IMG/VR virus record: IMGVR_UViG_2923350032_000001
Location: 1 to 64,000 of that record
Source: a virus
Lineage: Duplodnaviria; Heunggongvirae; Uroviricota; Caudoviricetes
Direction: 5' to 3' (one strand)
DNA: 64,000 bases
Shown here: one piece after another, positions 2,303 to 30,175 of the stretch
How the letters are laid out: every line of letters begins with the position of its first letter
Position numbering within the stretch: the first letter of the stretch is position 1
Made by a program: the position numbers and the translations under genes
Notes under the pieces: model-generated
Told to the model about the DNA's origin: nothing
Database searches by the model: none
Seen by the model: the letters and a program-made list of their open reading frames with translations, nothing else

Positions 2303-2423
2303 AGCGCATCCTTTGTGCCGTTTGGCAAGGGCCGGAAGGGGGTTAATGGTGACTTCCAGCGTGTAAAAAATGGTCTATATACTGACCGGATGTTAAGGTG
2401 ATCCGGTCGGTAGCAATGGTCAA

Positions 2424-8966: not shown

Positions 8967-10450
8967 TGGCCAGAAGTTGCGTAACGGATCCACGTTGGCG
9001 CGAGCTGGTGGCGCTATATCGTTATGACTGGATTGCTGCCGCTGATGTTTTGTTCGGCAAAACACCTACCTGGCAGCAGGATCTGATTATTGAGTCTGTG
9101 CAGGAACAGGGTAGCAAGACATCTGTTTCGTCTGGTCACGGTACCGGGAAATCAGACATGACTTCTATCATGATCATGTTGTTCATAATCATGTATCCCG
9201 GTGCCCGCGCCATTATCGTTGCGAACAAAATTCAGCAGGTAATGACCGGTATATTCAAGTACATCAAGATAAACTGGGCTACTGCCACCAGCCGTTTCCC
9301 ATGGCTTGCTGATTATTTTGTTCTGACAGAAACCGCTTTCTATGAGGTTACAGGTAAAGGTGTATGGACTGTAGTACCGAAGGGCTTTCGTCTGGGAAGT
9401 GAAGAAGCTCTCGCCGGTGAACACGCAGATCATCTTCTGTATATTATCGATGAAGCCTCCGGTGTCAGTGATAGAGCTTTCGGTATCATCACCGGTGCTC
9501 TTACCGGACAGGATAACCGCATCTTATTACTGTCACAGCCTACACGCCCAAGCGGCTATTTCTACGATACACACCATAAACTGGCCAAGCGTCCTGGTAA
9601 CCCTGATGGCGTTTATACGGCGATCACGCTTAACAGTGAGGAATCACCGTTGGTAACGCCAGCATTTATCAAAATGAAGCTGGCGGAGTACGGCGGGCGT
9701 GATAACCCTATGTACATGATTAAGGTACGCGGCCTATTCCCTAAATCACAGGATGGCTTCCTTCTTGGACGTGATGAGGTTGAACGTGCAACGCGGCGGA
9801 AAGTCAAGATTGCCAAAGGATGGGGCTGGCTTGCATGTGTGGACGTTGCTGGTGGTACGGGACGGGATAAGTCCGTTATCAATATCATGATGGTGTCCGG
9901 CCAGCGAAATAAACGCCGTGTAATCAACTATCGAATGCTGGAATACACAGACGTTACAGAAACGCAGCTTGCCGCCAAAATTTTCGCAGAATGTAATCCT
10001 GAGCGATTCCCAAATATCACCATAGCGATAGACGGCGATGGGCTGGGTAAAGCAACGGCGGATCTGATGTACGAGTATTATGGTATTACCGTACAGCGTA
10101 TACGCTGGGGTAAAAAGATGCATAGCCGTGAAGATAAGAGCCTGTACTTTGATAAACGTGCTTATGCCAACGTTCAAGCCGCAGAGGCCGTAAAATCTGG
10201 TCGTATGAGACTGGATAAGGGTAATGAAACTATTGAGGAAGCGTCGAAAATCCCTGTAGGGATTAACTCCGCAGGTCAATGGAAGGTGATGAGTAAGGAG
10301 GATATGAAGAAAAAACTCAACCTGCACTCACCAGACCATTGGGATACATATTGTTTCGCTATGCTGGCGGATTATGTTCCCCAGGATGAAGTGCTTAGCG
10401 TCGAAGACGAAGCGCAGGTTGATGAAGCTCTGGCATGGCTTAATGAATGA
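8966..10450 (+). CDS. pacB: Terminase large subunit PacB
   Basis: 494-aa ORF, start overlaps the pacA stop. Confidence 0.85.
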
Positions 10451-10453
10451 ATA

Positions 10454-10470
10454 TTTGCTCTAATAAATTG
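10454..10470 (+). promoter_or_regulatory. C1 operator (TTTGCTCTAATAAATTG)
   Basis: 16/17 match to the P1 C1 operator consensus, 4 bp after the pacB stop and upstream of the icd-like/ant-like genes. Confidence 0.7.
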
Positions 10471-10597
10471 TGTTTTTTAACTGCCGATGTTACATTGAAC
10501 CTGACCTCTTGCGCCTTGAGGCATTTTCGGTTTATGCTTATCAGGCACCTCATTAAAACGGGTGCCGGGATTGAGACCCCGGATAATGCAAAAGGCG

Positions 10598-10622
10598 ACA
10601 CAGACGCCAAAAGCGTCTTTTT
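10598..10622 (+). terminator. Rho-independent terminator-like hairpin (AGACGC-CAAAA-GCGTCT + T8)
   Basis: Perfect 6-bp stem followed by TTTTTTTT. Confidence 0.45.
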
Positions 10623-10810
10623 TTTGTGTCATGCCATCGCACAGCCATACGTAGCGTTTAGCTCAGAGATCAATGGTAGTGCTGGCTGGGCTGCCGAAAG
10701 GCAGGCCGGTTCCCTTTTGCGCCGGTAGTCTCAACCCAGTCAGTGCTACCGCCATTGAGATTGAGACCTCACGCGGTAGCTCCTTAAATTAGCAAAAGGA
10801 GGCTGCCATT

Positions 10811-11032
10811 GTGGCTACTATCCCTACCCCTGCTCATCCTGAATTTATCTGGCGCTTTTACTCCTGCCAAAAACGTCACTATCACTTCGTTATTGCACCG
10901 ACAGAAGATGAGGCACGTTCTCAGCTTCCTGACGCCCCATGTATTTTCTCTGCCCGTTTTTCCACTGATTCACGCAATTCTCTCAGTTACTGGTGCCTCC
11001 CTGTTAACGCTTCTGCTCAGGAGGGACTATGA
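10811..11032 (+). CDS. Icd-like small protein (cell-division inhibitor / Ash family), extra copy
   Basis: 73-aa ORF, paralog of ORF 24261-24482 (EFIWRFYSC..HYHFVIA.TEDEARSQLPD..CIF.ARFST.SRNSLSYW shared). Confidence 0.6.
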   Translation: MATIPTPAHPEFIWRFYSCQKRHYHFVIAPTEDEARSQLPDAPCIFSARFSTDSRNSLSYWCLPVNASAQEGL

Positions 11033-12141
11033 GAACATCGTTAGTTACCCGTGAAGAGATGATCGAGGCAATTGAACAGCACACTGCCTGTATCAGTACC
11101 AGGGATATACCTGGCGTTATTGCCAACTACTTCATGATCACCAAACAACTTTACCGGAGAAAGGACAAGAACGCGGTTCACCGTATCCTGCTGTCTGATA
11201 TCCGCGAATACCTGCTCGAACAGGGGCATCTGAATTACGCAACCGTCGCAGCCGAAGCACGCAAGGAGGCACACAGAATGAAAGCAACTAACGTTAAATC
11301 AGAAAAAATTTATGCACCTTCAGTTCAGGAATCGGAACTGGTGGTTGTTCAGAATCAGCCGGATGAAATTCCCGTTCTGGAATGGCAGGGAGTACGTGTC
11401 GTGACAACCGAAACTCTTGCTAGAGGGTATGGGGTCGATGAAGCCAATATTCGCAACAATTTGTCTCGCAACCTTGACCGCTTTGAAGAAGGTAAGCATT
11501 ACTTTCTTCTAACAGGTTTAAAATTAAGAGAATTTAAGAACAGAGTAACCGGAAGTTACTCTGTTGGTAAGAACGCCAGAAGCCTTACACTCTGGACAGA
11601 GCGCGGCGCTGCACGCATGTCTAAGATCGTGGACACAAATGAAGCATGGGCATTCTTTGAAAAACTGGAAGACAGCTACTTCCGACAAAAAGAACAGCAA
11701 CCGATCGCAATCCCCCAGACGCTTCCTGAAGCCCTACGCCTGGCTGCCGAACTGGCTGAACAAAAGCAGCTTCTGGAACAGAAAGCCCACCAGCTAAATC
11801 AGCAGCTGGTGGCCGCCGCTCCTAAGGTCGATTTTGCCGACCGGGTATCAGTAGCTAAAGGGATCCTGATTGGGAATTTTGCAAAGGTTGTTGGACTTAA
11901 GCAAAACGCGCTGTTTGCCTGGTTACGGGAGAACGGCATTCTGATAGCGTCCGGCGGGCGTAAAAATGTGCCGTTCCAGCAGTACATAAACGCCGGATAT
12001 TTCACAGTGAAAGAAGTGGTGCTGGATGATGAAGATGGCTACCAGATACGGCTGACGCCCCAATTAACGGGGAAAGGACAACAGTGGTTGACGCGTAAAC
12101 TGCTCGATGCTGGCTTGTTAAAACCGGTGGCGGCTGAATAA
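11029..12141 (+). CDS. Antirepressor-like protein (Ant/KilA-N domain plus Ant C-terminal domain)
   Basis: 370-aa ORF coupled to the icd-like gene; C-terminal 150 aa nearly identical to ORF 25081-25524 and similar to the C-terminus of KilA. Confidence 0.7.
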   Translation: MRTSLVTREEMIEAIEQHTACISTRDIPGVIANYFMITKQLYRRKDKNAVHRILLSDIREYLLEQGHLNYATVAAEARKEAHRMKATNVKSEKIYAPSVQESELVVVQNQPDEIPVLEWQGVRVVTTETLARGYGVDEANIRNNLSRNLDRFEEGKHYFLLTGLKLREFKNRVTGSYSVGKNARSLTLWTERGAARMSKIVDTNEAWAFFEKLEDSYFRQKEQQPIAIPQTLPEALRLAAELAEQKQLLEQKAHQLNQQLVAAAPKVDFADRVSVAKGILIGNFAKVVGLKQNALFAWLRENGILIASGGRKNVPFQQYINAGYFTVKEVVLDDEDGYQIRLTPQLTGKGQQWLTRKLLDAGLLKPVAAE

Positions 12142-12147
12142 TGGAAG

Positions 12148-12170
12148 AATGCCCGGTTGATGCCGGGCAT
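12148..12170. terminator. Hairpin between convergent ant-like and c1 genes (GCCCGG-TTGAT-GCCGGGC)
   Basis: Stem-loop in the 32-bp gap between two convergent stop codons. Confidence 0.35.
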
Positions 12171-12173
12171 AAT

Positions 12174-13025
12174 TTATTGCGCGCTTTCGGGGTTGTCGTT
12201 TACTGGCTGCCCCTTCTTAGTTTTACGACTGCGCGTAACTGATGCGGCTGATTTGACCTTTTTCTCTTCGCGAGTGATGGCAATTTGTTTTTTTACATTT
12301 TCAATATCTGCCAGGCGATATATTTTTGCCTGCGGCCAGCGGTCGCAGATGATCGGTTCTATGGAGTCATAAAGGCTAAATTTTGCTTTTTCGAATTCAC
12401 CGTTGATGATAATTCCATCACGGAGAGTTTCATCGCAGATAAACACGCCACACAGTGGCACATGGTAACTAACTGATTTACCATCATTGTAGTTAGGGCT
12501 ACTGGAAATGTAGTGGACGCGCAGCATTGTTTCGCTAAAGCCGTGTACGCGCATACGGAATTTTTCATCCTCCGGGTACTGCTTCATTAGCTCTTTTGTT
12601 GCTTCCAGGTTCTCTATGTATTTCGCACTGTGCTCATTGATCCCCGCGCTTTTTTGGATGCGAATGTCCTTATCAATCAGATGAATAATGCGGCCAGCGG
12701 TCATGTTGACGCTGTTCACAGCCTCTGTCTGATAAGTTGTAACCTTACGCACACCGCGAAGGATGTTAGGCACTGGATATAAAATAGTCTTTGGGATATT
12801 GAGGTCTGGGTACTGTTCCAGTTCCCGCGCCATTAAAGTCCATTTATCAATTTCAGCCTGAATGCTGTCAGTTTCTTTGAACGGTAGAACGACAACCGGG
12901 CGTACAGGACGACCGTCGCTGGCTGTATCAACGTGTTGGGCGCGTGCAACAGCTTTTTTTAGAAAGAGATCCCTGAAGCTGACGAACTCCTGGTACAGTT
13001 GTTCGCCGTAGACATAATTTATCAT
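12174..13025 (-). CDS. c1: C1 repressor of lysis
   Basis: 283-aa ORF MINYVYGEQLYQEFVSFRDLFLKK... matches remembered P1 C1. Confidence 0.95.
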   Translation of the reverse strand: MINYVYGEQLYQEFVSFRDLFLKKAVARAQHVDTASDGRPVRPVVVLPFKETDSIQAEIDKWTLMARELEQYPDLNIPKTILYPVPNILRGVRKVTTYQTEAVNSVNMTAGRIIHLIDKDIRIQKSAGINEHSAKYIENLEATKELMKQYPEDEKFRMRVHGFSETMLRVHYISSSPNYNDGKSVSYHVPLCGVFICDETLRDGIIINGEFEKAKFSLYDSIEPIICDRWPQAKIYRLADIENVKKQIAITREEKKVKSAASVTRSRKTKKGQPVNDNPESAQ

Positions 13026-13119
13026 TGATCCTCCTCCAGAATTGACATGGCCAATAACGCCCGGCTGAGAAAACCGGTCATTACTGACCTATATTATAGA
13101 GGGATCAAACAAAAATAAT

Positions 13120-13136
13120 AGATTTATTAGTGCATT
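13120..13136 (-). promoter_or_regulatory. Weak C1 operator-like site between coi and c1
   Basis: 14/17 match to reverse-complement consensus. Confidence 0.3.
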
Positions 13137-13345
13137 TATTGTGAGTCTAACTGGTTAGTTGCCATGAGATATTCGATTGTGTCAGTGAGGTCATCCAGGT
13201 CGTCTTGGGTGATGCGGTACTCCTGATTGGATATCTTTGAGTAGTGTTCAGCAATGGCGCGGGCAGCGTCGGTTTCGGCAGGGTCTACAGATAAAGCGTT
13301 AGAGCAATGTCTAACGTCGTCGATGGTTGGTTGAATGAAAGCCAT
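13136..13345 (-). CDS. coi: Coi, C1 inactivator
   Basis: 69-aa ORF immediately upstream of c1 on the same strand. Confidence 0.85.
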   Translation of the reverse strand: MAFIQPTIDDVRHCSNALSVDPAETDAARAIAEHYSKISNQEYRITQDDLDDLTDTIEYLMATNQLDSQ

Positions 13346-13583
13346 AATTATGCCTCACTGTATTGACAACACAGAGCCTGAAGCTCTGACCTACTGTTTC
13401 ACCCATGATCCATGCTGGGGTAATCTAACAACATTGCGCTGTGTGTAAGATGAGCAATGCATAGCTGTAATGCCGTTGTATAAGGTTTCCCTGTTTGCTC
13501 ATTTCCTTCTGAGCCGCTCTACAACGCTGAAGACACATTAAATAGTGAATCCAAAGTCGTATTACGTAACGGCGGCAAAACTA

Positions 13584-13600
13584 TAATTTATTAGAGCAAT
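13584..13600 (-). promoter_or_regulatory. C1 operator (reverse orientation)
   Basis: TAATTTATTAGAGCAAT, 16/17 to reverse-complement consensus. Confidence 0.7.
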
Positions 13601-13666
13601 TGTCAAACAACTATGAAAAACAATCCAGTTTTTGGTTGGTGGAGTGGGATTTTTCTCTCAAAATTT

Positions 13667-13683
13667 ATTGCTCTAATAATTCT
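13667..13683 (+). promoter_or_regulatory. C1 operator
   Basis: ATTGCTCTAATAATTCT; first 13 positions match consensus. Confidence 0.6.
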
Positions 13684-13726
13684 TGATTTTTATGCGCAGC
13701 TGGACGTAAACTCCTCTTCAGACCTA

Positions 13727-13760
13727 ATAACTTCGTATAGCATACATTATACGAAGTTAT
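13727..13760 (+). other. loxP: loxP recombination site
   Basis: Exact ATAACTTCGTATA-GCATACAT-TATACGAAGTTAT, 435 bp upstream of cre. Confidence 0.98.
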
Positions 13761-14178
13761 CTTAAGGGTTATTGAACATGATCAATTTACCTGTAAATCC
13801 ATACAGTTCAATACCTTATCAGGTCAAATAGTGATCACTTGATCATTTGATCAAGGTTGCGCTACGTAAAATCTGCGAAATGTTGGCAGTGTTAGTGCTC
13901 CAGATTTTGCGTAGCGCACTTAGCACCACCAATCAATCAGAGGTGAAAAATGGGATATTCAGCTGCTAAAGTGTCCACTCATATTGAGCTTGAGAAAAAC
14001 CGTGGTTACTGGCGGGCAAAAGGGTTTGATCGTGATAGTTGTCAACTGTCATTATCGCGCGGTGAAGAGAAAATAGAGCGCACGCGCGGTCGCTGGCGTT
14101 TCTATGACGAGAACCATAAACAGGTAAAGGCAGAGCCGATCCTGTACACTTTACTTAAAACCATTATCTGAGTGTTAA

Positions 14179-15210
14179 ATGTCCAATTTACTGACCGTAC
14201 ACCAAAATTTGCCTGCATTACCGGTCGATGCAACGAGTGATGAGGTTCGCAAGAACCTGATGGACATGTTCAGGGATCGCCAGGCGTTTTCTGAGCATAC
14301 CTGGAAAATGCTTCTGTCCGTTTGCCGGTCGTGGGCGGCATGGTGCAAGTTGAATAACCGGAAATGGTTTCCCGCAGAACCTGAAGATGTTCGCGATTAT
14401 CTTCTATATCTTCAGGCGCGCGGTCTGGCAGTAAAAACTATCCAGCAACATTTGGGCCAGCTAAACATGCTTCATCGTCGGTCCGGGCTGCCACGACCAA
14501 GTGACAGTAATGCTGTTTCACTGGTCATGCGACGGATCCGAAAAGAAAACGTTGATGCCGGTGAACGTGCAAAACAGGCTCTAGCGTTCGAACGCACTGA
14601 TTTCGACCAGGTTCGTTCACTCATGGAAAATAGCGATCGCTGCCAGGATATACGTAATCTGGCATTTCTGGGGATTGCTTATAACACCCTGTTACGTATA
14701 GCCGAAATTACCAGGATCAGGGTTAAAGATATCTCACGTACTGACGGTGGGAGAATGTTAATTCATATTGGCAGAACGAAAACGCTGGTTAGCACCGCAG
14801 GTGTAGAGAAGGCACTTAGCCTGGGGGTAACTAAACTGGTCGAGCGATGGATTTCCGTCTCTGGTGTAGCTGATGATCCGAATAACTACCTGTTTTGCCG
14901 GGTCAGAAAAAATGGTGTTGCCGCGCCATCTGCCACCAGCCAGCTATCAACTCGCGCCCTGGAAGGGATTTTTGAAGCAACTCATCGATTGATTTACGGC
15001 GCTAAGGATGACTCTGGTCAGAGATACCTGGCCTGGTCTGGACACAGTGCCCGTGTCGGAGCCGCGCGAGATATGGCCCGCGCCGGAGTTTCAATACCGG
15101 AGATCATGCAAGCTGGTGGCTGGACCAACGTAAATATTGTCATGAACTATATCCGTAACCTGGATAGTGAAACAGGGGCAATGGTGCGCCTGCTGGAAGA
15201 TGGCGATTAG
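14179..15210 (+). CDS. cre: Cre site-specific tyrosine recombinase
   Basis: 343-aa ORF MSNLLTVHQNLPALPVDATSDEVRKNLMDMFRDRQAFSEHTWK... matches remembered P1 Cre. Confidence 0.98.
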   Translation: MSNLLTVHQNLPALPVDATSDEVRKNLMDMFRDRQAFSEHTWKMLLSVCRSWAAWCKLNNRKWFPAEPEDVRDYLLYLQARGLAVKTIQQHLGQLNMLHRRSGLPRPSDSNAVSLVMRRIRKENVDAGERAKQALAFERTDFDQVRSLMENSDRCQDIRNLAFLGIAYNTLLRIAEITRIRVKDISRTDGGRMLIHIGRTKTLVSTAGVEKALSLGVTKLVERWISVSGVADDPNNYLFCRVRKNGVAAPSATSQLSTRALEGIFEATHRLIYGAKDDSGQRYLAWSGHSARVGAARDMARAGVSIPEIMQAGGWTNVNIVMNYIRNLDSETGAMVRLLEDGD

Positions 15211-15227
15211 CCATTAACGCGTAAATG

Positions 15228-15244
15228 ATTGCTCTAATTCTTTG
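15228..15244 (+). promoter_or_regulatory. C1 operator-like site upstream of cra
   Basis: ATTGCTCTAATTCTTTG, 11-bp core match. Confidence 0.5.
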
Positions 15245-15260
15245 ATATTTATGGTGACAT

Positions 15261-15572
15261 ATGAGAAAGGATTTCAACATCGACGGAAAATATGTAGTGC
15301 TGTCTGTAAGCACTAATATTCAGTCGCCAGCCGTCATTGTCACTGTAAAGCTGAGCGATAGAATGCCTGATATTGATTCAATATCCATTGCGTTCCCTGT
15401 CAAAAGTATGCGTGGTGCTGAACATTTCGTGATGAATGCCACCGAGGAAGAAGCACGGCGCGGTTTTGCTAAAGTGATGTCTGAGTTTGGCGAATTTTTG
15501 GGGCACGTTGACAAAGCCCTTTCAATCAGTTCAGCAAGATCCAAAGCGTTAACAGCTTCCATGATGAAATAA
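15261..15572 (+). CDS. cra: Hypothetical protein in the P1 cra position
   Basis: 103-aa ORF between cre and ref, preceded by an operator-like site; a mirror ORF on the other strand was rejected. Confidence 0.45.
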   Translation: MRKDFNIDGKYVVLSVSTNIQSPAVIVTVKLSDRMPDIDSISIAFPVKSMRGAEHFVMNATEEEARRGFAKVMSEFGEFLGHVDKALSISSARSKALTASMMK

Positions 15573-15704
15573 AAAAAAGCCTGGCAAGGAGCCAGGCTGC
15601 ACAAAAGAGCGGGTTTGTATTCCGCATCCAATCAATCAAGAAGGAGTATAGCACACAGGTACTGAAGTGAAAAAATGTGATTCGCGATAAACAAAATATC
15701 TACC

Positions 15705-15721
15705 ATTGCTCTAATTGATTG
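15705..15721 (+). promoter_or_regulatory. C1 operator upstream of ref
   Basis: ATTGCTCTAATTGATTG about 100 bp upstream of the ref start. Confidence 0.6.
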
Positions 15722-15820
15722 TTATAATTGAGCCGCAGTTTTTGTCAACTACGAAGACGTTGCCATTACTTCACTCCTTGACATCATTGGCGGCCATTAG
15801 GCCGCCTTTTTTTTGACCAT

Positions 15821-16396
15821 ATGAAAACAATCGAACAAAAAATTGAACAGTGCCGCAAGTGGCAGAAGGCAGCCAGAGAACGAGCGATCGCTCGGCAACG
15901 GGAGAAGTTGGCTGATCCGGTCTGGCGAGAATCTCAATATCAGAAAATGCGGGATACTATCGACCGCCGTATCGCTAAACAGAAAGAGCGCCCACCAGCC
16001 AGCAAAACGCGGAAAAGTGCGGTAAAAATAAAATCTCGTGGCTTGAAGGGACGAACACCGACGGCAGAGGAACGGCACATAGCCAATGCTCTTGGCGCTC
16101 TCCCCTGCATTGCGTGCTATATGCATGGAGTAATATCTGAAGAGGTGTCTCTGCACCATATTTCCGGTCGTACCGCGCCTGGTTGTCACAAAAAGCAATT
16201 GCCACTTTGTAGATGGCACCACCAGCATGCAGCACCGGCTGAAGTAAGAGCAAAATACCCCTGGCTGGTCCCTGTTCATGCCGATGGTGTGGTTGGAGGC
16301 AAGAAAGAATTCACCCTGCTGAACAAGTCAGAGATGGAGTTACTGGCTGACGCCTATGAGGGGTCGTCTCAGAAAACGGAAAATAAAGCACGCTAA
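15821..16396 (+). CDS. ref: Ref, recombination enhancement function (HNH endonuclease), 3' end replaced by transposon sequence
   Basis: 191-aa [29 protein letters not shown]... with Cys/His HNH motifs; the last 11 codons and stop lie inside the Tn21-family inverted repeat. Confidence 0.85.
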
Positions 16397-16397
16397 G
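16360..16397. repeat. Tn21-family 38-bp terminal inverted repeat
   Basis: GGGGTCGTCTCAGAAAACGGAAAATAAAGCACGCTAAG. Confidence 0.85.
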
Positions 16398-19359
16398 CCG
16401 GTTGCAGAGGCCGTAGCGGCCTGAACTTCCCCGCGCCGATCTTGGCGCTGCTGCGCCATAGGTAATCACCGGTCAGGTTGATGTGCTCCCAGCCGAGTGG
16501 CGACAGGTACTGCAATAGCGAGTCATCGACGGCATGACCATTGCCGCGCAACGCATGCGCCGCACGCTCCAGGTAGACCGTGTTCCACAGCACGATGGCC
16601 GCCGTCACCAGGTTGAGGCCGCTGGCCCGGTAGCGCTGCTGCTCGAAACTGCGGTCACGGATTTCACCAAGGCGGTTGAAGAACACGGCACGGGCCAGCG
16701 CATTGCGCGCCTCGCCCTTGTTCAGCCCGGCATGCACGCGGCGGCGTAGCTCGACGCTTTGCAGCCAGTCGAGGATGAACAGCGTGCGCTCGATGCGGCC
16801 CAACTCGCGCAGCGCGACGGCCAAGCCGTTCTGGCGCGGGTAGCTGCCGAGTTTCCTGAGCATCAGCGAGGCCGTCACCGTGCCCTGCTTGATCGAGGTG
16901 GCCAGCCGCAGGATTTCGTCCCAATGGGCGCGGACGTGCTTGATGTTGAGCGTGCCGCCGATCATCGGCTTGAGCGCGTCATAGGCGGCATCGCCCTTCG
17001 GGATGTAGAGCTTGGTGTCGCCCAGGTCGCGGATGCGCGGCGCGAAGCGGAAGCCCAAGAGGTGCATCAGGGCGAAGACGTGATCGGTGAAGCCCGCCGT
17101 GTCGGTGTAGTGCTCCTCGATCCGCAGGTCGGATTCGTGGTACAGCAGGCCGTCGAGCACGTAGGTTGAGTCGCGCAGGCCGACATTGACCACCTTGGTG
17201 TGGAATGGCGCGTATTGGTCGGAGATGTGGGTGTAGAAAGTCCGTCCTGGGCTGCTGCCATATTTTGGGTTGATGTGCCCCGTGCTCTTTGCCTTGCTAG
17301 CGGTTCGGAAATTCTGTCCGTCCGATGATGATGTGGTGCCATCGCCCCAGTGCCCGGCAAAGGGATGCCGAAACTGAGCGTTGACCAGTTCAGCCAACGC
17401 TGTCGAGTACGTTTCGTCGCGGGTATGCCAGGCTTGCAGCCAAGCGAGCTTCGCGTAGGTCGTGCCGGGGCAGGACTCGGCCATCTTGGTCAGGCCCAGG
17501 TTGATCGCGTCGGCCAGGATCGTGGTCAACAACAGGTTCTTGTCCTTGGCCAGATCGCCCGATTTCAAGTGCGTGAAGTGCCGGGTGAAGCCCGTCCACT
17601 CATCGACTTCGAGCAGCAGTTCGGTGATCTTGACGTGCGGCAGGACCATGGCTGTCTGGTCTATCAGCGCCTGCGCGGTGTCGGGCACCGCCGCATCCAG
17701 CGGCGTGATCTTCAAGCCCGACTCGGTGATGATGGCATCCGGCAGGTCGTTGGCTGCCGCCATGCGGTTGACGGTGGCAAGTTGTGCTTCCAGCAGCGTC
17801 AGCCGCTCATGCAGATATTGTTCGCAGTCGGTGGCCACGGCCAGCGGCAATTCGCTGGACTGCTTGAGGCTGGTGAACTTCTCGGGCGGTACCAGGTAGT
17901 CCTCGAAGTCCTTGAACTGGCGTGAACCCTGCACCCAGATGTCGCCCGAGCGCAGGGAGTTCTTCAACTCGGACAGCGCGCACAGTTCGTAGTAGCGCCG
18001 GTCGATGCCGGCGTCGGTCATCACCAGTTTCTGCCAGCGCGGCTTGATGAAGCCGGTCGGTGCATCGGCTGGCAGCTTGCGGGCGTTGTCGGTGTTCATG
18101 CCGCGCAGCACCTCAATGGCATCAAGCACGTTTTTGGCGGCGGGCGCGGCCCGCAGCTTGAGCACGGCAAGGAATTCCGGTGCATAGCGGCGCAGGGTGG
18201 CGTAGCTCTCGCCGATGCGATGCAGGAAATCGAAGTCATCGGGTTGCGCGAGCTTCTGCGCCTCGGTGACGCTCTCGGCAAAGGAATCCCAGGACATGAC
18301 GGCCTCGATGGCGGCAAACGCATCGCGGCCTGATTGCTTGGCGTCGATCAGCGCCTGACCGATGCGCCCGTACAGACGTACCTTGGCGTTGATGGCCTTG
18401 CCTGACGCCTGGAACTGCTGCTGATGCTTATTCTTGGCAGCGTTAAACAGCTTACCCAGGATGCGGTCGTGCAGGTCGATGATTTCGTCGGTGACGGTGG
18501 CCATGCCCTCGGTGGCCAGCGCCACGAGAGTGGCGTAGCGCCGTTGCGGCTCGAATTTGGCCAGGTCGGCGGGTGTCATCTGGCCGCCCTCGCGGGCAAT
18601 CTTGAGCAGGCGGTTCTGGTGAACCAGCCGCTCGATGCCGGTAGGCAGATCGAGTGCCTGCCATGCCTTGAGGCGTTCGATGTGTTCCAGCATATGCCGC
18701 GAATTTGGCTTGGCCGGAGACTGGCGCAACCAAGCCAACCAGGTCGTCTTGCCGTTGTCCCGGCGCTTGAGCAGATCGTCGAGGCGGCGGCGATGCGCGT
18801 CCGCCAGTGGTTCGGCCAAGGCGTCGTAGATGCGCCGGTTAGCACGGGTGATCGCCTCTGCACTCGCCCGCTCGACGGCGTTGAGGGCGGGCAGAATGAC
18901 CGACTGCCGCCGCAGGTGCCCGATCAAGGCGCTGGCCAGCACGATGCCTTTGTCGGTTTGCATCGCCAGCTCGGTCAGCATCTGGACGGCCTGCCGGTAA
19001 TGGCTCATGGTGAAGGGCCGGAAACCGAACACGGTTTGCAGCTCGCTCAGGTGCTCGCGCCGGGTCTGCTCCCGCTGGCCGTACTCGTTCCAGCTTTCGA
19101 CGCCGACCTTGAGCTGGTCGGCGACCAGCTTCAACAAGGGCGGGAACGGTAGTTCATCGACGCCCAGGATGACGCCGGGAAAGCGCAGGTAACAGAGCTG
19201 CACCGCGAAGCCCAGCCGATTGGCTGGCCCGCGCCGCTGTCGGATGATCGAGAGGTCGGTATCGTTGAATGTGTAATGTCGGATCAGGTCGTCCTTGGAG
19301 TCCGGCAACGCCAGCAGGCTTTCCCGCTCGGCGGCGGACAGGATGGAACGACGTGGCAT
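16393..19359 (-). CDS. tnpA: Tn3-family transposase TnpA (Tn21-like)
   Basis: 988-aa [34 protein letters not shown]... Confidence 0.95.
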
Positions 19360-19361
19360 AT

Positions 19362-19922
19362 TTACTGATCCGTTCTCAAGTATTGATACAGGGTTTCGCG
19401 ACTGATTCCGAATTCACGAGCAAGCTTGGTCTTTTGCTCGCCAGCCTCGATACGTTGGCGCAGTTCGGCAATACGCTCAGACGACAGGGATTTCTTCCTG
19501 CCACGGTAAGCCCCGCGTTGCTTGGCGAGCGCAATACCCTCGCGCTGACGCTCGCGGATCAGGGCGCGCTCGAACTCGGCGAACGCGCCCATCACCGAGA
19601 GCATCAGGTTCGCCATCGGAGAGTCTTCGCCAGTAAAACTGAGGTGTTCCTTGACGAATTCGATATGCACGCCGCGTTGTGTCAGCGTTTGCACGATCCG
19701 GCGCAAATCATCGAGATTGCGCGCCAGGCGATCCATGCTATGCACCACCACGGTGTCGCCGGTGCGGGCGAAGCTTATCAGCGCTTCCAGTTGCGGACGC
19801 TTGACATCCTTGCCGGATGCCTTGTCGCTAAAAGCGCGATCAACCTTGACGCCTTCCAGTTGCCGTTCCGGGTTCTGGTCGAAGGTGCTGACCCTGATAT
19901 ACCCAATGCGCTGTCCAGTCAT
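19362..19922 (-). CDS. tnpR: Serine resolvase TnpR (Tn21-like)
   Basis: 186-aa [24 protein letters not shown]... with C-terminal HTH. Confidence 0.95.
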
Positions 19923-20060
19923 GGAATTCCCTGCAAAATGTCAGGGAAGACTCTATGACCTTCAACGAGATATGTCAATAAATTCAAAATTCAATCCTAT
20001 CCTGACGCAATTTACACATGGCATCTGACATCAGGTTAGGGTATGCCTCAACCTGACGGC
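19923..20060. other. res: Probable res (resolution) site of the Tn21-family element
   Basis: Located immediately upstream of tnpR with TGTCA-type subsites. Confidence 0.45.
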
Positions 20061-20154
20061 GGCGAATCACAAGCGTCCGGTTTGACGCTGGTTTCGGTCG
20101 CAGTGCTGGCCCGCGCCTGGAAGCGCTGATAGCACTCCAGCCCGCAGAAATGCT

Positions 20155-20432
20155 GGCACTGTTGCAAATAGTCGGTGGTGATAAACTTATCATCCCCTTT
20201 TGCTGATGGAGCTGCACATGAACCCATTCAAAGGCCGGCATTTTCAGCGTGACATCATTCTGTGGGCCGTACGCTGGTACTGCAAATACGGCATCAGTTA
20301 CCGTGAGCTGCAGGAGATGCTGGCTGAACGCGGAGTGAATGTCGATCACTCCACGATTTACCGCTGGGTTCAGCGTTATGCGCCTGAAATGGAAAAACGG
20401 CTGCGCTGGTACTGGCGTAACCCTTCCGATCT
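20155..20432 (+). mobile_element. Truncated IS26 (first 278 bp: IR plus 5' part of tnpA)
   Basis: 14-bp IR GGCACTGTTGCAAA at 20155-20168; tnpA N-terminal 72 codons identical to the complete copy, then abrupt junction. Confidence 0.9.
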
Positions 20433-21252
20433 GGCACTGTTGCAAAGTTAGCGATGAGGCAGCCTTTTGTCTTATTCAAAGGCCTTACATTTCAAAAACT
20501 CTGCTTACCAGGCGCATTTCGCCCAGGGGATCACCATAATAAAATGCTGAGGCCTGGCCTTTGCGTAGTGCACGCATCACCTCAATACCTTTGATGGTGG
20601 CGTAAGCCGTCTTCATGGATTTAAATCCCAGCGTGGCGTTGATTATCCGTTTCAGTTTGCCATGATCGCATTCAATCACGTTGTTCCGGTACTTAATCTG
20701 TCGGTGTTCAACGTCAGACGGGCACCGGCCTTCGCGTTTGAGCAGAGCAAGCGCGCGACCATAGGCGGGCGCTTTATCCGTGTTGATGAATCGTGGGATC
20801 TGCCACTTCTTCACGTTGTTGAGGATTTTACCCAGAAACCGGTATGCAGCTTTGCTGTTACGACGGGAGGAGAGATAAAAATCGACAGTGCGGCCCCGGC
20901 TGTCGACGGCCCGGTACAGATACGCCCAGCGGCCATTGACCTTCACGTAGGTTTCATCCATGTGCCACGGGCAAAGATCGGAAGGGTTACGCCAGTACCA
21001 GCGCAGCCGTTTTTCCATTTCAGGCGCATAACGCTGAACCCAGCGGTAAATCGTGGAGTGATCGACATTCACTCCGCGTTCAGCCAGCATCTCCTGCAGC
21101 TCACGGTAACTGATGCCGTATTTGCAGTACCAGCGTACGGCCCACAGAATGATGTCACGCTGAAAATGCCGGCCTTTGAATGGGTTCATGTGCAGCTCCA
21201 TCAGCAAAAGGGGATGATAAGTTTATCACCACCGACTATTTGCAACAGTGCC
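20433..21252 (-). mobile_element. Complete IS26 (820 bp, IS6 family)
   Basis: 14-bp IRs at 20433-20446 and 21239-21252; internal 234-codon transposase. Confidence 0.95.
20485..21189 (-). CDS. tnpA: IS26 transposase
   Basis: [34 protein letters not shown]... 234 aa; the ORF-track N-terminal extension MLMELH is rejected. Confidence 0.95.
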   Translation of the reverse strand: MNPFKGRHFQRDIILWAVRWYCKYGISYRELQEMLAERGVNVDHSTIYRWVQRYAPEMEKRLRWYWRNPSDLCPWHMDETYVKVNGRWAYLYRAVDSRGRTVDFYLSSRRNSKAAYRFLGKILNNVKKWQIPRFINTDKAPAYGRALALLKREGRCPSDVEHRQIKYRNNVIECDHGKLKRIINATLGFKSMKTAYATIKGIEVMRALRKGQASAFYYGDPLGEMRLVSRVFEM

Positions 21253-21266
21253 CCATATCAGCCCCC

Positions 21267-21857
<591 letters not shown>

Positions 21858-21963
21858 TTAACTGATTCTACGAGATGTCATTTGTCCATTGTGCCAACTG
21901 TTATTATGGATATCGTAATTCGTACGAATCGCGCTGTTACAGGATGTATAGCAACCTTAATAA

Positions 21964-23196
21964 TTATTTGAATATATCGGTTATAGTTGGGTAATTATAC
22001 ATCTTAAGCTTATCTCTAAATTTCATAGAAAATATAGGGTCTACCTTACATCTCTGTGAGAGCTTTGCAAGCCTTAGCTCCCTCTCTTTCATAATATCTT
22101 TGTATTCTCTATCAATACTCTCCTGAATTTGCTGATTCTCAACAGGAGACGGTTTTGTAATTTTATCCCATTGATAAGTTGGATTCTCAGTGTAATTTAA
22201 ATCATCATTTTGAAGTAATTTCTCAAGATGAGACATAGCATTTTCATATAGCATTCTATCTTGGGGCAACATACTTGCAACACGCACTTCGCTTTCAATT
22301 TCCGATACTATCATTTCAAGTTGACGTTTTTCCATCGCTATAGCTACACGGAATGGAAACAGGGCTTCTTGCTTAATCATTTGACAATTCACATTATTGT
22401 TTATGTCACTAAGTAATTTTACAAATGAGAACTTCGCTAAAGGCTGCTGATTTATGACACTCTGTCTAACTGGCATTGTGTAGCTCGGTGTTTTTTCAAG
22501 TGTTTTCTTCACTTGCTCTATAGCAACATTAGGAGTTTTGAGAACAGTCTTTGCTGGAATACGTAGCACCATAAACCCCTCCTTTATTGAATATTCATCA
22601 CGAATACGATCTCGCTCTATTTGTTCAGGGGATGAATGCCATGCTGCACCATCAATTTCTATAATTTGGCGTCCATTTACGACAAAATCAAAACGATAAC
22701 GCTTATAGGGCACTTGCATTTCAAGCACTAAGTCAGGAGAAACTAACATTCCAGATTTAGGTTTAAGATTAAACTCTGCAACCATTTTACGAAGAAATGC
22801 CTCCTCAGCCGGAGATTCGCAACCTTTGCAAAATATATCAAGCCAGTTTTCTGCGTCAGCGTCAACAGTTTGCCACCATGCTAACAGTCCGCGTCGGTGT
22901 CCATATAATCGTTCATCTGACGGTTTTGTTAATGGCTTTGTTAACGGTTTAATTAAGGGTTCATTTAACGGCTTATTTAACGGATTTAATAACGATTCAT
23001 TTAATGGTTTGATTGACGGTCTATTTGACGACTCAATCGGTGGTTTAGATGATGATTTGTTTTTTTTATCAAAACCTACGATAGTTATATATGCTACATA
23101 TAGCATCATGCCTGCAACAGGCCATACACATGGATAAATCACGTAACACAACAGTAATAGAACAATAGTCCCAAAAAATGTTAACTTCTTCCGCAT
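21964..23196 (-). CDS. Membrane-anchored protein with Pro-rich tetrapeptide repeats and a DUF559/Vsr-like endonuclease-fold domain
   Basis: 410 aa; N-terminal TM helices; PLNKPLNEPLIKPLTKPLTKP repeats; motif IEIDGAAWHSS...RDRIRDEY...GFMVLRI; low-GC gene. Confidence 0.55.
   Translation of the reverse strand: MRKKLTFFGTIVLLLLCYVIYPCVWPVAGMMLYVAYITIVGFDKKNKSSSKPPIESSNRPSIKPLNESLLNPLNKPLNEPLIKPLTKPLTKPSDERLYGHRRGLLAWWQTVDADAENWLDIFCKGCESPAEEAFLRKMVAEFNLKPKSGMLVSPDLVLEMQVPYKRYRFDFVVNGRQIIEIDGAAWHSSPEQIERDRIRDEYSIKEGFMVLRIPAKTVLKTPNVAIEQVKKTLEKTPSYTMPVRQSVINQQPLAKFSFVKLLSDINNNVNCQMIKQEALFPFRVAIAMEKRQLEMIVSEIESEVRVASMLPQDRMLYENAMSHLEKLLQNDDLNYTENPTYQWDKITKPSPVENQQIQESIDREYKDIMKERELRLAKLSQRCKVDPIFSMKFRDKLKMYNYPTITDIFK
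22922..23030. repeat. Imperfect 12-bp tandem repeat array (about 9 units) inside ORF 21964-23196
   Basis: Units GGNTTNNTTAAY repeated head to tail; encodes the Pro-rich tetrapeptide repeats. Confidence 0.7.
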
Positions 23197-23269
23197 ACCA
23201 AACTCTTTGCATCAATAAAGGGGGCTGGCTTATATAATCAAATCACATGCCCGAAATAAAAGATGACCA

Positions 23270-23706
23270 ACACCAACGGAAATAACACTCTAAAGCTCCA
23301 CCGCCAGCACCACCAGCACCACCAGCACCACCAGCACCACCAGCACCACCAGCAACTGCACCCAAGGTAGAAGTTCCTTTAATATTATATCCAGTAACAC
23401 TACCAGCTACTGCACCGAGAACAGCACCGAAAGTCTGAGCTGCTTATTTATTAGCTGTATTATCAACTTTTACTTTGGCTGGGAGAACAGAGATTATATT
23501 TACTACTCTTGTTTTGAATTAAGTTGGGCTGTGTCGTACACATCTGCCGCATATTCAGCACCATTAGACTGACACCCTGAGAGAAAAATTGCAGAAACAA
23601 CCATGACGCATAAAGAAGAAATTTTAGCCATTAGAATCATCCCAGAAAAAAATATAATCCAAGAAAATCTATCACATAAGCCAAATACAAACAAGATTAC
23701 AAACAA
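23270..23706 (-). pseudogene. Decayed SlyB/Pcp-like glycine-zipper outer-membrane lipoprotein
   Basis: ORF 23503-23706 has a lipobox (AIFLSGC) and DVYDTAQLNSKQ resembling SlyB; downstream in another frame a Gly-zipper GAVLGAVAGSVTG...(GAG)5 follows, separated by stop codons. Confidence 0.4.
23305..23349. repeat. Perfect 9-bp tandem repeat CAGCACCAC x5
   Basis: Direct reading; encodes (Gly-Ala-Gly)5 on the minus strand. Confidence 0.9.
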
Positions 23707-23931
23707 GATTAATCCTATTGATGTATATCAATTATTATAAAAAATACGATCTTCATTGCTGAAGCTGCGTTATATTAAGTCTAAAAAAATCAACCATCGA
23801 TATTATATGCTCTGCTAATAATTTATACTTGATTTAGTTGAATTGGATTAATATTGACACTTACTCACTCTCTAATTATATATAATTTCCAATTTTATAT
23901 GCGCATATATAGAAACCTATACCAATAGCAC

Positions 23932-23948
23932 TTCGCTCTAATAAATTT
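23932..23948 (+). promoter_or_regulatory. C1 operator-like site upstream of the immI-like module
   Basis: TTCGCTCTAATAAATTT, 15/17 to consensus, about 310 bp upstream of icd. Confidence 0.55.
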
Positions 23949-24099
23949 GTATTTTTAAGTCGCGAATGCTATCTTTTCGCATCATATTGACCTTTTAATC
24001 GTTCAGGCTTGTAGTTCCGCCGTCGTAGCAAATTCTGCGACCGGGTTTAGCAGCCTGAATACTTACGCGGACAACCGCAGATTTCCGATATTGCGGTAT

Positions 24100-24255
24100 T
24101 TTTGTGTCCGTAAACCACGTTACGCCCGAATTATGGTGGGGCGTGATGGGGAGGCTTCGGCCTGCTGGTTTCGTAAGTGCCAGTCTGCTAACCCCGTCAC
24201 GTCCTGCCACCTGTTTAGCAGCGGGTCGCAGGTTGTTTATCAACTTACGAGGCCG
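24100..24255 (+). ncRNA. c4: Candidate c4-type antisense regulatory RNA region
   Basis: Position between operator and icd; GC-rich hairpins; TTTTTGTGTC element shared with the paralogous region at about 10617; not verified against the P1 c4 sequence. Confidence 0.3.
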
Positions 24256-24260
24256 TAACT

Positions 24261-24482
24261 ATGGTTAATGCCAATCCTTGCGCACGCCAAGAATTCATCT
24301 GGCGTTTCTATTCCTGTAAAAAACACCACTATCACTTCGTTATCGCAGCAACAGAAGACGAAGCACGCTCTCAATTGCCTGATGGCCCCTGCATTTTTAC
24401 TGCCCGTTTTTCAACTAACTCGCGCAATTCACTTAGTTACTGGAGCCTCCCCTTCTCTGCCGACGTTCAGGGGGGTTTATGA
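24261..24482 (+). CDS. icd: Icd-like protein
   Basis: 73-aa ORF, 4-bp overlap with the ant start. Confidence 0.65.
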   Translation: MVNANPCARQEFIWRFYSCKKHHYHFVIAATEDEARSQLPDGPCIFTARFSTNSRNSLSYWSLPFSADVQGGL

Positions 24483-25524
24483 AAACACCTCTCGTCACCC
24501 GTAATGAAATAGCCGAAGCGATCGCCTTGCATACTGCCTGTATGCCGACACGGGAGACCCCCGGCGCAATTGCCAACTATTTCATGATAACCAGACGTTT
24601 TTATACCCGAACAGATAAGGCTGTGATCAACAGGCTACTGATAGCCGAGATCAGGGATTATTTGATTGAACAAGGACGTCTACGTTACGCAACAGTGGCA
24701 GCAGAAATGAGAAAGGAGGCGCGCAGAATGACCGGTAATAATTTGAATGTTGAAAAACCAGCACCTGTTGCTTCAGCTACGCCATCACCAGCTGTGAATG
24801 TTATCTCCAACACTGGAGACACAATCGACAGCCAGACACTGTTAAAGATGGTCAATGAAGCGCGTAAGTTATGTGTGGAACCAGAGGTTCGGAACAACAA
24901 ATTCATCGAAAAAATACTCGACGAATTAGAAGGTGAGGACGGTTACACAAAAAGTGCAACCGTGCCGCCAGGTGGCGGTACGCCTATGGTTGTCATAACC
25001 ATGACCTACAAACAAGCCCTGCGAGTCGCGCGCGCGAGTCAAAAGCGGTCCGCCGTTCGCTGATCGACAAACTGGAAGAATTGCAGCAGGCATACTCCCC
25101 TGCCCCATCGATCCCCCAAACATTACCAGAAGCTCTACGCATGGCTGCCGAGTTGGCAGAGCAGAAAATGCAGTTGGAACAGCAGCTGGTGGCCGCAGCC
25201 CCTAAAGTCGATTTTGCCGACCGGGTATCAGTGGCCAATGGAATCCTGATCGGGAACTTTGCAAAGGTCGTTGGACTTAAGCAAAACGCCCTTTTCTCAT
25301 GGTTGCGCCAGAACGGCATTCTCATGGCTTTTGGAGCGCGCAAAAACGTACCGCGCCAACAGTACATCAATGCGGGGTATTTCACGGTGAAAGAAGTGGT
25401 GCTGGATGATGAAAATGGCTACCAGATACGGCTGACGCCCCAATTAACGGGTAAAGGCCAGCAGTGGTTAACTCGCAAGCTACTTGATGCTGGTTTGTTA
25501 AAACCAGTGGCGTCCTTGTCTTAA
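24479..25524 (+). pseudogene. ant: Antirepressor Ant, apparently frameshifted into two ORFs
   Basis: ORFs 24479-25063 and 25081-25524 together parallel the 370-aa protein at 11029-12141; frame change near a GCGCGCGCG run around 25030-25065. Confidence 0.55.
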
Positions 25525-28492: not shown

Positions 28493-29835
28493 CCCATAAG
28501 CGCTAACTTAAGGGTTGAACCATCTGAAGAATGCGACGCCTCGGTGCCTCGTTAAGACGATGCCTCGCGTTCTTCAATTGCGTTTTGTAGGCTGTCAGGG
28601 ATACTGTCCCACGAATGGCCACCTGTAAGCTCCAGATGACCATTTTTGTTATTCTCCACAACGAGTTAGTTCTTCTTTTCGGATCCGGCACTTCTGGGGG
28701 GGAAATCCAGCGATGGCTGGATTATGTCGTCAATTAAAAATGCGGCGAGTAGATTAGCAAATATCCACGCTTTCGCGAGTTCAGGTTCCTTTGCACGCAA
28801 AGCATCCAGGTGCAGCAAACTTTTGAGCCGCTTAAAAGCCAGTTCAATTTGCCATCGCAGACGGTAACAATCAGCCACTTGCTCTGCTGAATATTCATCT
28901 TCCGGTAATGATGTTAGCAATAGCACATGGCCCGCTGCTTCCAGCGTTTCCGCCTGAACTACTCGTCCTTTTCGACGATTCTCGCTGAGCAGTCGGGTTT
29001 TACTGATTAATGCTTTTTCGGGAGGAAGTGATACGGCAATGAGACGTGCCGGAAAGGGAGCTCCGGCTTTTTTATTACCTGAATTGCCTATCATTACAGT
29101 GGTTTCACCGTTCTTACCGCAATCCAGCCCGCGCAGAAAACCCATCATGTCAAAGCGCATTCCTTCTGCAGTTAACCAGCGCAATCCTCGCCAGTGAACC
29201 CGGACGATATAATCAGCTTCTCCAAAAGCAAGTGAGCGGATACATTCGGGACGCGAACCGAATCCCCGGTCAGCAATGCGTATCTCGTCTGCCGTTTGCG
29301 CAAATCGGTCCAGCCGTTCAGCGTCTCTGCTGTCGGTTAGCTCAAAATCAGTGAACTGACAGGTATGAGGATCATATCCCATATGTAGTCGCCATTCAGC
29401 GCTGCCGCCCCCGGGCGCACTGATTGCTGTTCCATCGACAAGACGCAATCTCTTTCCGCTTGTACAACCCGTAACTGCGGCGCGTACAGCAAGTGTTTGT
29501 GCGGCAAGTATGCCAAACCAGTCGGCGGCATTCCGCAGCCGCTTCAGGAGAGCCACGTCAGATAATGTTGCAACGTCATGGAGCTGAGCCCATGCAGTGA
29601 CTTCACGTAATGACATCCCCCCGGGGCCGTAAGCCAGCCCCAGACGTAGCAGAGTTGCAGCATCACGAATTTCGCGGCGGCGGGTTAGAGCCCCGGCATT
29701 ACGTGCCGAAGTATCCAGTTCTTCGGGCTTACCAATATGGGCCAGAATTGCTGACCAGTTATCGTGAGAGTAATTCATCGGCACGTTAAATCATATCAGG
29801 CGTAATACCACAACCCTTAAGTTAGCGCTTATGGG
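28493..29835 (-). mobile_element. IS186 (IS4 family)
   Basis: Terminal inverted repeats CCCATAAGCGCTAACTTAAGGGTTG at both ends; GC-rich GGGG...CCCC target context. Confidence 0.85.
28666..29784 (-). CDS. IS186 transposase
   Basis: 372-aa ORF MPMNYSHDNWSAILAHIGKPEELDTSARNAG... Confidence 0.85.
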   Translation of the reverse strand: MPMNYSHDNWSAILAHIGKPEELDTSARNAGALTRRREIRDAATLLRLGLAYGPGGMSLREVTAWAQLHDVATLSDVALLKRLRNAADWFGILAAQTLAVRAAVTGCTSGKRLRLVDGTAISAPGGGSAEWRLHMGYDPHTCQFTDFELTDSRDAERLDRFAQTADEIRIADRGFGSRPECIRSLAFGEADYIVRVHWRGLRWLTAEGMRFDMMGFLRGLDCGKNGETTVMIGNSGNKKAGAPFPARLIAVSLPPEKALISKTRLLSENRRKGRVVQAETLEAAGHVLLLTSLPEDEYSAEQVADCYRLRWQIELAFKRLKSLLHLDALRAKEPELAKAWIFANLLAAFLIDDIIQPSLDFPPRSAGSEKKN

Positions 29836-30140
29836 AGTGATCCCCGCCACTCTTCGTGTGTCTGGTAACCTCAATGCACCCTTTTCTCCCCAATAGTGTA
29901 AAACACAATGAAGTAGAAGGAGTTATTTCACATCATGCAAAGATTCAGACCATATCTCCCAATAGCCTTCGCGACATGATGACTTTCAGAAATATCTAGC
30001 TGTTAACAAAATTCCATACTTGCTTTGCTAATACCACCTAGATTATATATGGAAAAATACACCTAAAACTTAAACAAATTATATCCACAACAAACATCCA
30101 TCTATTAGGATTAAAATTAATTTAATAATAAATAATACAA

Positions 30141-30168
30141 CACCGGTTCATTTTCTAACAAACCGGTG
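30141..30168 (-). terminator. Rho-independent terminator after the MazG-like gene
   Basis: Stem CACCGGTT/AACCGGTG with T-rich tail on the minus strand. Confidence 0.5.
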
Positions 30169-30175
30169 GGCACCA

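Follow-up and report, generated by a model that had tools for sequence, protein, structure and literature searches.

The locus described here raises the question of how the tnp end of a Tn21 transposon came to stand in a P1-like element without any resistance cargo and beside phage genes that in P1 lie far away from it. The locus occupies positions 16360-21252 of a 64,000-nucleotide stretch, positions 1 to 64,000 of the IMG/VR virus record IMGVR_UViG_2923350032_000001 (Caudoviricetes), the whole of which is called the window below. In it a Tn21 tnpA-tnpR-res module is cut by a fragment of the insertion sequence IS26, and this fragment abuts a complete IS26 in the opposite orientation. Very probably the locus is the scar of a deletion of about 69 kb, driven by IS26 in a P1-family IncY phage-plasmid, in which the Tn21 cargo and a large block of phage genes were lost.

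Comparison with pL9-1

The informative relative is pL9-1 (NZ_CP142045.1), a 133,989-bp IncY P1-like phage-plasmid of Escherichia coli L9 from chicken, Henan, China, which is 99.7-100% identical to the window over all the segments that the two share. Window positions 1-20154 correspond to record coordinates 44403-24247 of pL9-1 with 99.975% identity, and the identities reach 99.993% for window 28669-57999 and 100% for 59687-64000. Both have the same junction between ref and IRtnp, the terminal inverted repeat (IR) at the tnp end of Tn21, as well as a type I hsd module, a second icd/ant module and the IS26-v1 variant. The plasmid pL9-1 differs in keeping the whole 29,255-bp Tn21 derivative, including the IR of the other end (IRmer) and both copies of the target duplication TATGA. 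The cargo of this derivative consists of intI1 with arr-3/dfrA27/aadA16, qacEdelta1-sul1, chrA, IS6100, mph(A)-mrx-mphR, three IS26, aac(3)-IId and merRTPCADE. It is followed in pL9-1 by a 43.5-kb P1-type block, also kept, with the order mat, darB, portal, pro, lysozyme, ssb, darA operon, holins, cin, tail fibres, baseplate, sit, pmgB and tub. No IS26 is present in pL9-1 in tnpM or at tub; its three copies are all oriented as the complete copy of the window, and one of them is IS26-v1.

Relative to pL9-1 the window lacks 68,939 bp, of which 25,460 bp belong to Tn21 and 43,479 bp to the backbone. The gap extends from pL9-1 24247 (window 20154) to 89296 (window 21253) and crosses the origin of the circular record. 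From Tn21 it takes the integron, sul1, chrA, mph(A), aac(3)-IId, mer and IRmer, and from the backbone mat, darB, portal, pro, the lysis genes, ssb, the darA operon, cin and the tail fibres, the baseplate, sit, pmgB and tub. Every resistance gene annotated in pL9-1 falls within this gap, and therefore the retained part carries none. A first, sequence-only reading of the window had proposed that IS26 activity removed the cargo, and the comparison with this complete P1-like phage-plasmid carrying a Tn21/IS26 region supports the deletion, as pL9-1 has the same ref::Tn21 junction with both the cargo and the mat-to-tub block intact.

Structure of the Tn21-IS26 locus

The features of the scar and its flanks are as follows; ORF stands for open reading frame, and IRL and IRR for the left and right IRs of IS26.

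15821-16396, plus strand: P1-type ref (RecA-dependent nuclease), a 191-amino-acid ORF, left flank of the scar
16355-16359, no strand: TATGA, left copy of the 5-bp target duplication from the entry of Tn21 into ref
16360-16397, plus strand: Tn21 IRtnp, 38-bp terminal IR GGGGTCGTCTCAGAAAACGGAAAATAAAGCACGCTAAG, an exact match to 19693-19730 of R100 Tn21
16393-19359, minus strand: Tn21 tnpA, intact, 988 amino acids (from the ORF list and collinearity with R100)
19362-19922, minus strand: Tn21 tnpR resolvase, intact, 186 amino acids (annotated as a recombinase in pL9-1 and in the related p204A1-114K)
19923-20047, no strand: putative Tn21 res, between tnpR and tnpM, placed by collinearity with R100 Tn21 and established Tn21 anatomy, as a whole stretch and not by single subsites
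20048-20154, minus strand: 3′ remnant of tnpM/urf2, 107 bp (DUF3330 ORF), cut by the IS26 fragment
20155-20432, plus strand: IS26 fragment, bases 1-278 (IRL and the first 215 bp of tnp26)
20433-21252, minus strand: complete IS26-v1, 820 bp, with IRR adjoining the fragment and IRL adjoining P1 DNA
20485-21189, minus strand: tnp26, intact, coding for a 234-amino-acid Tnp26 with N at residue 184
21253-21256, minus strand: the 4 nucleotides (ATGG) remaining of tub (tail tube), the other tub sequence being deleted
21267-21833, minus strand: pmgC, intact, 188 amino acids, right flank of the scar (P1 pmgC is 46010-46576)

The coordinates that the sequence-only reading had given for the Tn21 IR, tnpA-tnpR, the 278-bp IS26 piece on the plus strand, the 820-bp IS26 on the minus strand and their abutment all hold. 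The anatomy of the locus and the exact ends of the insertion sequences can be read directly from the assembled window, as can the lack of target duplications; alignment shows directly what was lost in comparison with pL9-1 and P1, and how nearly the replicon closes.

On the left, the window up to position 16360 is 97.7% identical to P1 1-2616. The ref gene (P1 ref is 2077-2637; Pfam RecA_dep_nuc match, E=6e-49) was entered by Tn21 21 nucleotides before its stop codon, and read-through into the Tn21 IR replaces its last 7 codons. In the window only the left copy of TATGA is found, the right copy having been deleted. That it is one half of a target duplication is seen in pL9-1, where the junctions read ...GCCTATGA/IRtnp and IRmer/TATGAGATGGC, and in uninterrupted P1, which reads GACGCCTATGAGATGGC. 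The ref/IRtnp junction is identical in pL9-1, and a second TATGA follows IRmer there; the entry of Tn21 into ref was therefore an ordinary transposition that duplicated 5 bp and took place in a common ancestor of the window plasmid and pL9-1.

Positions 16360-20154 are the tnp end of Tn21, consisting of IRtnp, tnpA, tnpR, res and 107 bp of tnpM. This 3,795-bp remnant is 99.95% identical to 19730-15936 of R100 Tn21 (2 mismatches, 0 gaps), and because of this identity the element, described at first as a Tn21-like module, is Tn21 itself, as a remnant and not as a complete transposon; the family assignment stands and is narrowed. The truncation had been placed after res, which is correct, and the cut can now be located within tnpM, 232 bp past the start codon of tnpR. 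The breakpoint is R100 position 15936, 244 bp short of IRi of In2 (the start of the In2 integron in R100), and in pL9-1 and p204A1-114K tnpM runs on past it. The window has neither the mer operon nor the class 1 integron of urf2/tnpM; both are present in pL9-1, within the 68.9-kb gap. The scar region is cargo-less, as had been noted: it contains tnpA, tnpR, the tnpM stub, a tnp26 stub and tnp26, and no integron or resistance gene was found in it. A second Tn21-type IR, the other end that remained to be looked for, is not present in the 64-kb window, where IRtnp is the sole one left. To judge from these genes, a Tn21 stub with one IR would not be capable of normal two-ended transposition; the TnpR/res pair and IS26-v1 are intact and potentially active.

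The complete IS26 has perfect 14-bp terminal IRs (GGCACTGTTGCAAA). Two of the three IS26 copies of pL9-1 differ from it at positions 459, 613 and 614 and the third is identical. The G184N variant of Tnp26 defines IS26-v1 (PMC9412624), and by this residue the complete copy can be assigned to IS26-v1. The 278-bp fragment stops before positions 459, 613 and 614, and is therefore not assignable to either IS26 variant. It agrees at every base with the final 278 bp of the complete copy when these are reverse-complemented (0 mismatches), so that the two form an inverted repeat with 278-nucleotide arms of 100% complementarity and 542 nucleotides between the arms. No further IS26 IR occurs elsewhere in the 64-kb window.

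Three junctions delimit these pieces: J1 (20154/20155) joins tnpM to IRL of the fragment, J2 (20432/20433) joins IS26 position 278 to IRR of the complete copy, and J3 (21252/21253) joins IRL of the complete copy to tub. Each of them falls at the first or last base of an IS26 IR. At J3 the IRL end of IS26-v1 is joined to the fourth base of tub, as aligned with tub of pL9-1 (record coordinates 89293-89904) and of P1 (45388-45999); the pmgC side is 96.2% identical to P1 45983-46634. No 8-bp target duplication was found around the scar, as the octamers GAAATGCT at J1 and CCATATCA at J3 match in neither direct nor inverted orientation. Such a duplication is not expected after in cis deletions, so its absence is no argument against the identification of IS26. 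The dinucleotide CT precedes both IS26 IRs and was judged a 2-base coincidence.

These flanks bear on another explanation, namely that a pre-formed unit of IS26 fragment and IS26 was inserted into an already short P1-like plasmid, or was gained by recombination. Truncated IS26 abutting complete inverted IS26 does occur elsewhere in many plasmids, as seen from two-piece matches with slightly larger spans. On the other hand, the 1,098-bp unit is not bordered by an 8-bp direct repeat. To its left stands the pL9-1 ref::Tn21 junction, with 100% identity as far as the breakpoint, and to its right the P1 backbone runs on collinearly from tub base 4. The exact J2 is absent from the collections searched (see below). 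Simple insertion of the unit was rejected for want of an 8-bp repeat in either orientation, and we regard this explanation as a whole as extremely improbable.

Position on the P1 map and extent of the replicon

On the P1 map (NC_005856) the window reads as 87970-94800, then 1-2616, the scar, and then 45983-84482, on one strand throughout. The mapped segments are 92-99% identical to P1 and the IncY phage-plasmid backbone is collinear. Nothing in the window corresponds to P1 2617-45993 (about 43 kb, from mat to tub). The P1 ref sequence stops at position 16360 of the window, and the c4/icd/ant genes of immI begin at 23935, about 7.5 kb downstream. The loss of the ref-to-immI interval at this junction had been suspected from P1 gene order, with a separation of about 7.6 kb, and is borne out. 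Both flanks are on the same strand in P1 and in pL9-1, on which basis an inversion was rejected and the configuration can be read as a deletion; of the "deletion or rearrangement" originally suggested, the deletion is upheld and the inversion is not.

The window is P1-like in that it has the maintenance and immunity functions repA/parAB, phd/doc, cre/lox, c1, immI and repL, and it also retains pacAB and the capsid and sheath genes. The complete virion and lysis set (portal, pro, lyz/lydAB, tail fibres, baseplate, sit, tub) was not found in it. Base 1 of the window maps to pL9-1 44403 and base 64000 to 45153, which are 749 bp apart in hsdR and consistent in orientation. In the simplest reading, the replicon would be a circle of about 64.75 kb, of which the window represents all but about 749 bp. 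This unseen part is too small to hold the missing genes, which therefore are not elsewhere in this replicon. A contiguous set of P1 morphogenesis genes at another place in the replicon had been named as the finding that would overturn the proposed loss, and the proximity of the window ends in hsdR of pL9-1 speaks against it.

A different possibility is that the excised segment of about 69 kb, together with one IS26, behaved as a large translocatable unit and was re-inserted in the chromosome or another plasmid of the same cell, in which case the strain would still carry the resistance and P1 morphogenesis genes. IS26-bounded circles can reintegrate beside another IS26 (PMC4471558), and the evidence presented here consists of one window, with the other replicons of the host outside it. 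The segment is not in this replicon, given the coverage of the predicted circle, and the window has no second Tn21 IR and no further IS26, observations that bear on this replicon only. We consider such a relocation improbable.

Searches for the same junctions

Contiguous matches to J1, J2 and J3 were sought in PLSDB, 5,426 complete E. coli genomes, GTDB representatives and JGI metagenome contigs, and none was obtained. No record in PLSDB or among the complete E. coli genomes covered a query spanning window 20055-21400, a 398-bp query including J1 and J2 had no single-piece match, and exact 39-40-mers of the three junctions gave 0 matches in JGI metagenome and GTDB genome contigs. Separate 140-bp queries for J1, J2 and J3 produced two-piece matches only, with larger spans corresponding to IS26 at other nearby positions; as judged from these junction queries, IS26 at other tnpM positions is common. 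The top multi-piece matches, pEC21Z144-121K-NDM5 and pCAU16175_1, contain the same pieces in a different order and were set aside as not being this structure.

The junctions being present in one record, an assembly artefact has to be weighed, with the 69 kb still in place (for example, inverted between inverted IS26 copies) and the join at 20432/20433 chimeric or collapsed. As a multi-copy repeat, IS26 is a common cause of breaks and misjoins in assemblies, pL9-1 has three copies of it, J2 was found in no other record of the collections searched, and the evidence for the junctions is the assembled sequence. Nevertheless, collapse of a repeat gives one IS26 and not a 278-bp fragment on the exact IRR of an inverted complete copy, and a random chimera seldom hits the terminus of an insertion sequence. 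Moreover, one side of J1 and one side of J3 is unique sequence, so that these two junctions must exist physically, and the contig closes within 749 bp at a coherent size, a circle of about 64.75 kb. Assembly error is thus an unlikely source of this one-record junction, and we regard the artefact as a whole as improbable.

Proposed mechanism

Deletion driven by IS26 is textbook behaviour. Intramolecular replicative transposition of IS26 takes two forms, of which the in cis form deletes the DNA between the insertion sequence and its target without a duplication, and the in trans form inverts the intervening DNA and creates an oppositely oriented IS26 copy; a 74-kb deletion adjoining an IS26 has been inferred in the same study (He et al. 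2015, PMC4471558). The scar resembles those cases in its exact IS26 ends, in the lack of target duplication and in the removal of tens of kilobases, and the first two traits fit the signature of intramolecular replicative transposition. It differs in that one of the targets was another IS26, the one that left the 278-bp stub, and in that phage structural genes were deleted too.

From here on we infer how many IS26 events there were, in what order they came, and that they were replicative, in cis or in trans. At least two events are needed, and there were probably three. The ancestor would have been very near to pL9-1, its ref gene carrying at the 3′ end a Tn21 derivative of about 29 kb, and IS26 copies within its resistance region would have acted by intramolecular replicative transposition. 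In a first step, a plus-oriented IS26 would have been placed in tnpM, generating J1, by an in trans event or by independent insertion; the most economical route would be an in trans inversion begun by a resident minus-oriented IS26. A minus-oriented IS26-v1 would then have attacked the plus copy in cis at 278/279, generating J2, and the IRL end of the same IS26-v1 would have attacked the first codon of tub in cis, generating J3. Each in cis event would excise the intervening DNA as a circle with one IS26. Since oriR/repA and oriL/repL map to the retained part, the circle or circles would lack both and would be expected to be lost. A variant with an equal number of steps may be proposed, in which the plus copy first attacks tub in trans, inverting 69 kb, and an in cis deletion into the plus copy follows. 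An inverted intermediate would carry TGATATGG adjoining an IRR. Three events make the shortest path that could be constructed, and no intermediate that would fix their order was found.

Some points weigh against this account. J1-J3 are known from assembled sequence, and the proposed intermediates are hypothetical, none having been found in the collections searched for the junctions. The circular closure was deduced from mapping on pL9-1, and not from a circular record. Some of the cargo could have been lost earlier, through RecA-dependent recombination between IS26 copies in direct orientation. Finally, pL9-1 is a sister of the window plasmid and not its direct ancestor, as two IS91-family insertions and a 269-bp loss set it apart from the window, which in turn has an IS91-family insertion of its own.

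The IS91-family insertions can be described further. In the window a 1,689-bp element of this family (57999-59687) interrupts pmgP; its transposase ORF (58170-59369, minus strand) has Y2_Tnp and Zn_Tnp_IS91 domains, and its size and family fit IS1294. The pmgP insertion is not found in pL9-1, which has two copies at other sites, so the element has therefore been active since the two plasmids diverged. Positions 21892-23934 of the window hold a non-P1 sequence in place of the sim (superimmunity) genes of P1, including an intact 410-amino-acid ORF with a DUF559/REase_MTES_1575-like domain (21964-23196, minus strand, and especially 22227-22495). An IS91-family copy interrupts the same ORF in pL9-1, where 269 bp have been lost. 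The window is therefore the more ancestral of the two at this place, in agreement with pL9-1 being a sister and not a parent.

Related elements and accessory content

The 114-kb IncY P1-like plasmid p204A1-114K (CP100027.1) has the same ref::Tn21 junction and an IS26 in tnpM beside res. That IS26 is complete, lies 108 bp further into tnpM and has the orientation opposite to that of the window fragment, and p204A1-114K differs also in keeping the mer operon, IRmer and the P1 backbone from mat and darB onward.

Defective P1-derived plasmids that lost modules through the activity of insertion sequences, such as pTZ20_1P and pSvP1, have been described (Venturini et al. 2019, PMC6906374), and module loss of this kind in P1-like plasmids has been treated as conversion of phage-plasmids to plasmids (Pfeifer and Rocha 2024, PMC10879196). 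Like the window plasmid, these elements have P1-like backbones without tail, baseplate or lysis modules and persist as plasmids only. They usually keep or gain resistance and conjugation genes, whereas the window plasmid lost all its resistance cargo and gained nothing. An IS26 at tub is found in pTZ20_1P as well, but at the opposite (3′) end of the gene; the junction differs and was considered unrelated to J3.

Other transposons have been found in the same part of P1-like elements. In MH445380.1 (phage "P1" transconjugant 2; region 9586-16738) a Tn21 lies 376 bp after cre, at another site and outside ref, and was taken as an independent insertion. P7 (AF503408) has Tn3 beside ref. Together with the Tn21 in ref of the pL9-1 lineage, these repeated independent transposons suggest that the cre-c8-ref-mat corner is a permissive cargo site in P1-like elements.

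The window includes several regions that differ from P1. A second icd/antirepressor module at 10838-12141 (ORF 11029-12141, plus strand) lies between pacB and c1, where P1 has nothing; it codes for ORF6N and KilAC domains and is only 70-80% identical to P1 icd/ant1. This module comes on top of the canonical immI at 23935-25511, and pL9-1 and p204A1-114K have it too. A type I restriction-modification system occupies 1-5110 and 63940-64000, between pap and phd, where P1 has pmgT through humD. Mapping on pL9-1 places hsdR at about 1-2305 (continuing across the window ends), hsdS at about 2427-3557 and hsdM at about 3554-5110. The type III res/mod genes of P1 are absent from the window, and in pL9-1 the corresponding place, between mat and lxc, has a DUF2971 gene. 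Five segments without a P1 counterpart are shared with pL9-1 (window 28672-31433, 36954-39330, 44492-45513, 47551-48881 and 49215-50830); the pL9-1 annotations of these regions include hokD, a MazG-like protein, an IS4-family transposase, a TnpB-type RNA-guided endonuclease and a divergent repA-par intergenic/partition region. These segments are lineage-specific accessory content of the IncY P1-like group.

Predicted consequences of the proposed deletion

Its gene content indicates that the plasmid still has the genes for replication, partition, addiction and immunity as well as those for packaging, capsid and sheath, and that it lacks the portal, head-processing, lysis, ssb, anti-restriction (darA/darB), tail fibre, baseplate, tape-measure and tail-tube genes. 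As the virion and lysis genes are missing, it should persist as a plasmid and should be unable to form particles. The element would thus be considered a P1-derived plasmid and not a functional phage-plasmid.

It may not be a dead end. The retention of pac/pacAB, lpa, repL/oriL, c1/immI, cre/lox and the capsid and sheath genes, with the virion and lysis genes missing, is the basis for a satellite-like reading in which a P1-like helper, either co-resident or superinfecting, might package the derivative by a headful mechanism and transfer it. Separately, the 1,098-bp unit of IS26 fragment and IS26-v1, which is bounded by two outward-facing IRL ends, might be mobile. We regard this reading as improbable.

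Taken as such a deletion, the locus is an ordinary IS26 scar and belongs to biology that is already known. Its components (Tn21, IS26-v1 and the P1/IncY backbone) are each at least 99.9% identical to described elements, which leaves little discovery value in them. Its value is in the clean, near-isogenic before-and-after pair that the window plasmid forms with pL9-1, in which the breakpoints are mapped precisely. The pair would show that a few IS26 events can both strip all resistance genes and turn a phage-plasmid into a virion-defective plasmid of about 65 kb, an example of the phage-plasmid-to-plasmid conversion described by Pfeifer and Rocha (PMC10879196). For surveillance, an IncY/P1 replicon call implies neither a functional phage nor carriage of resistance.

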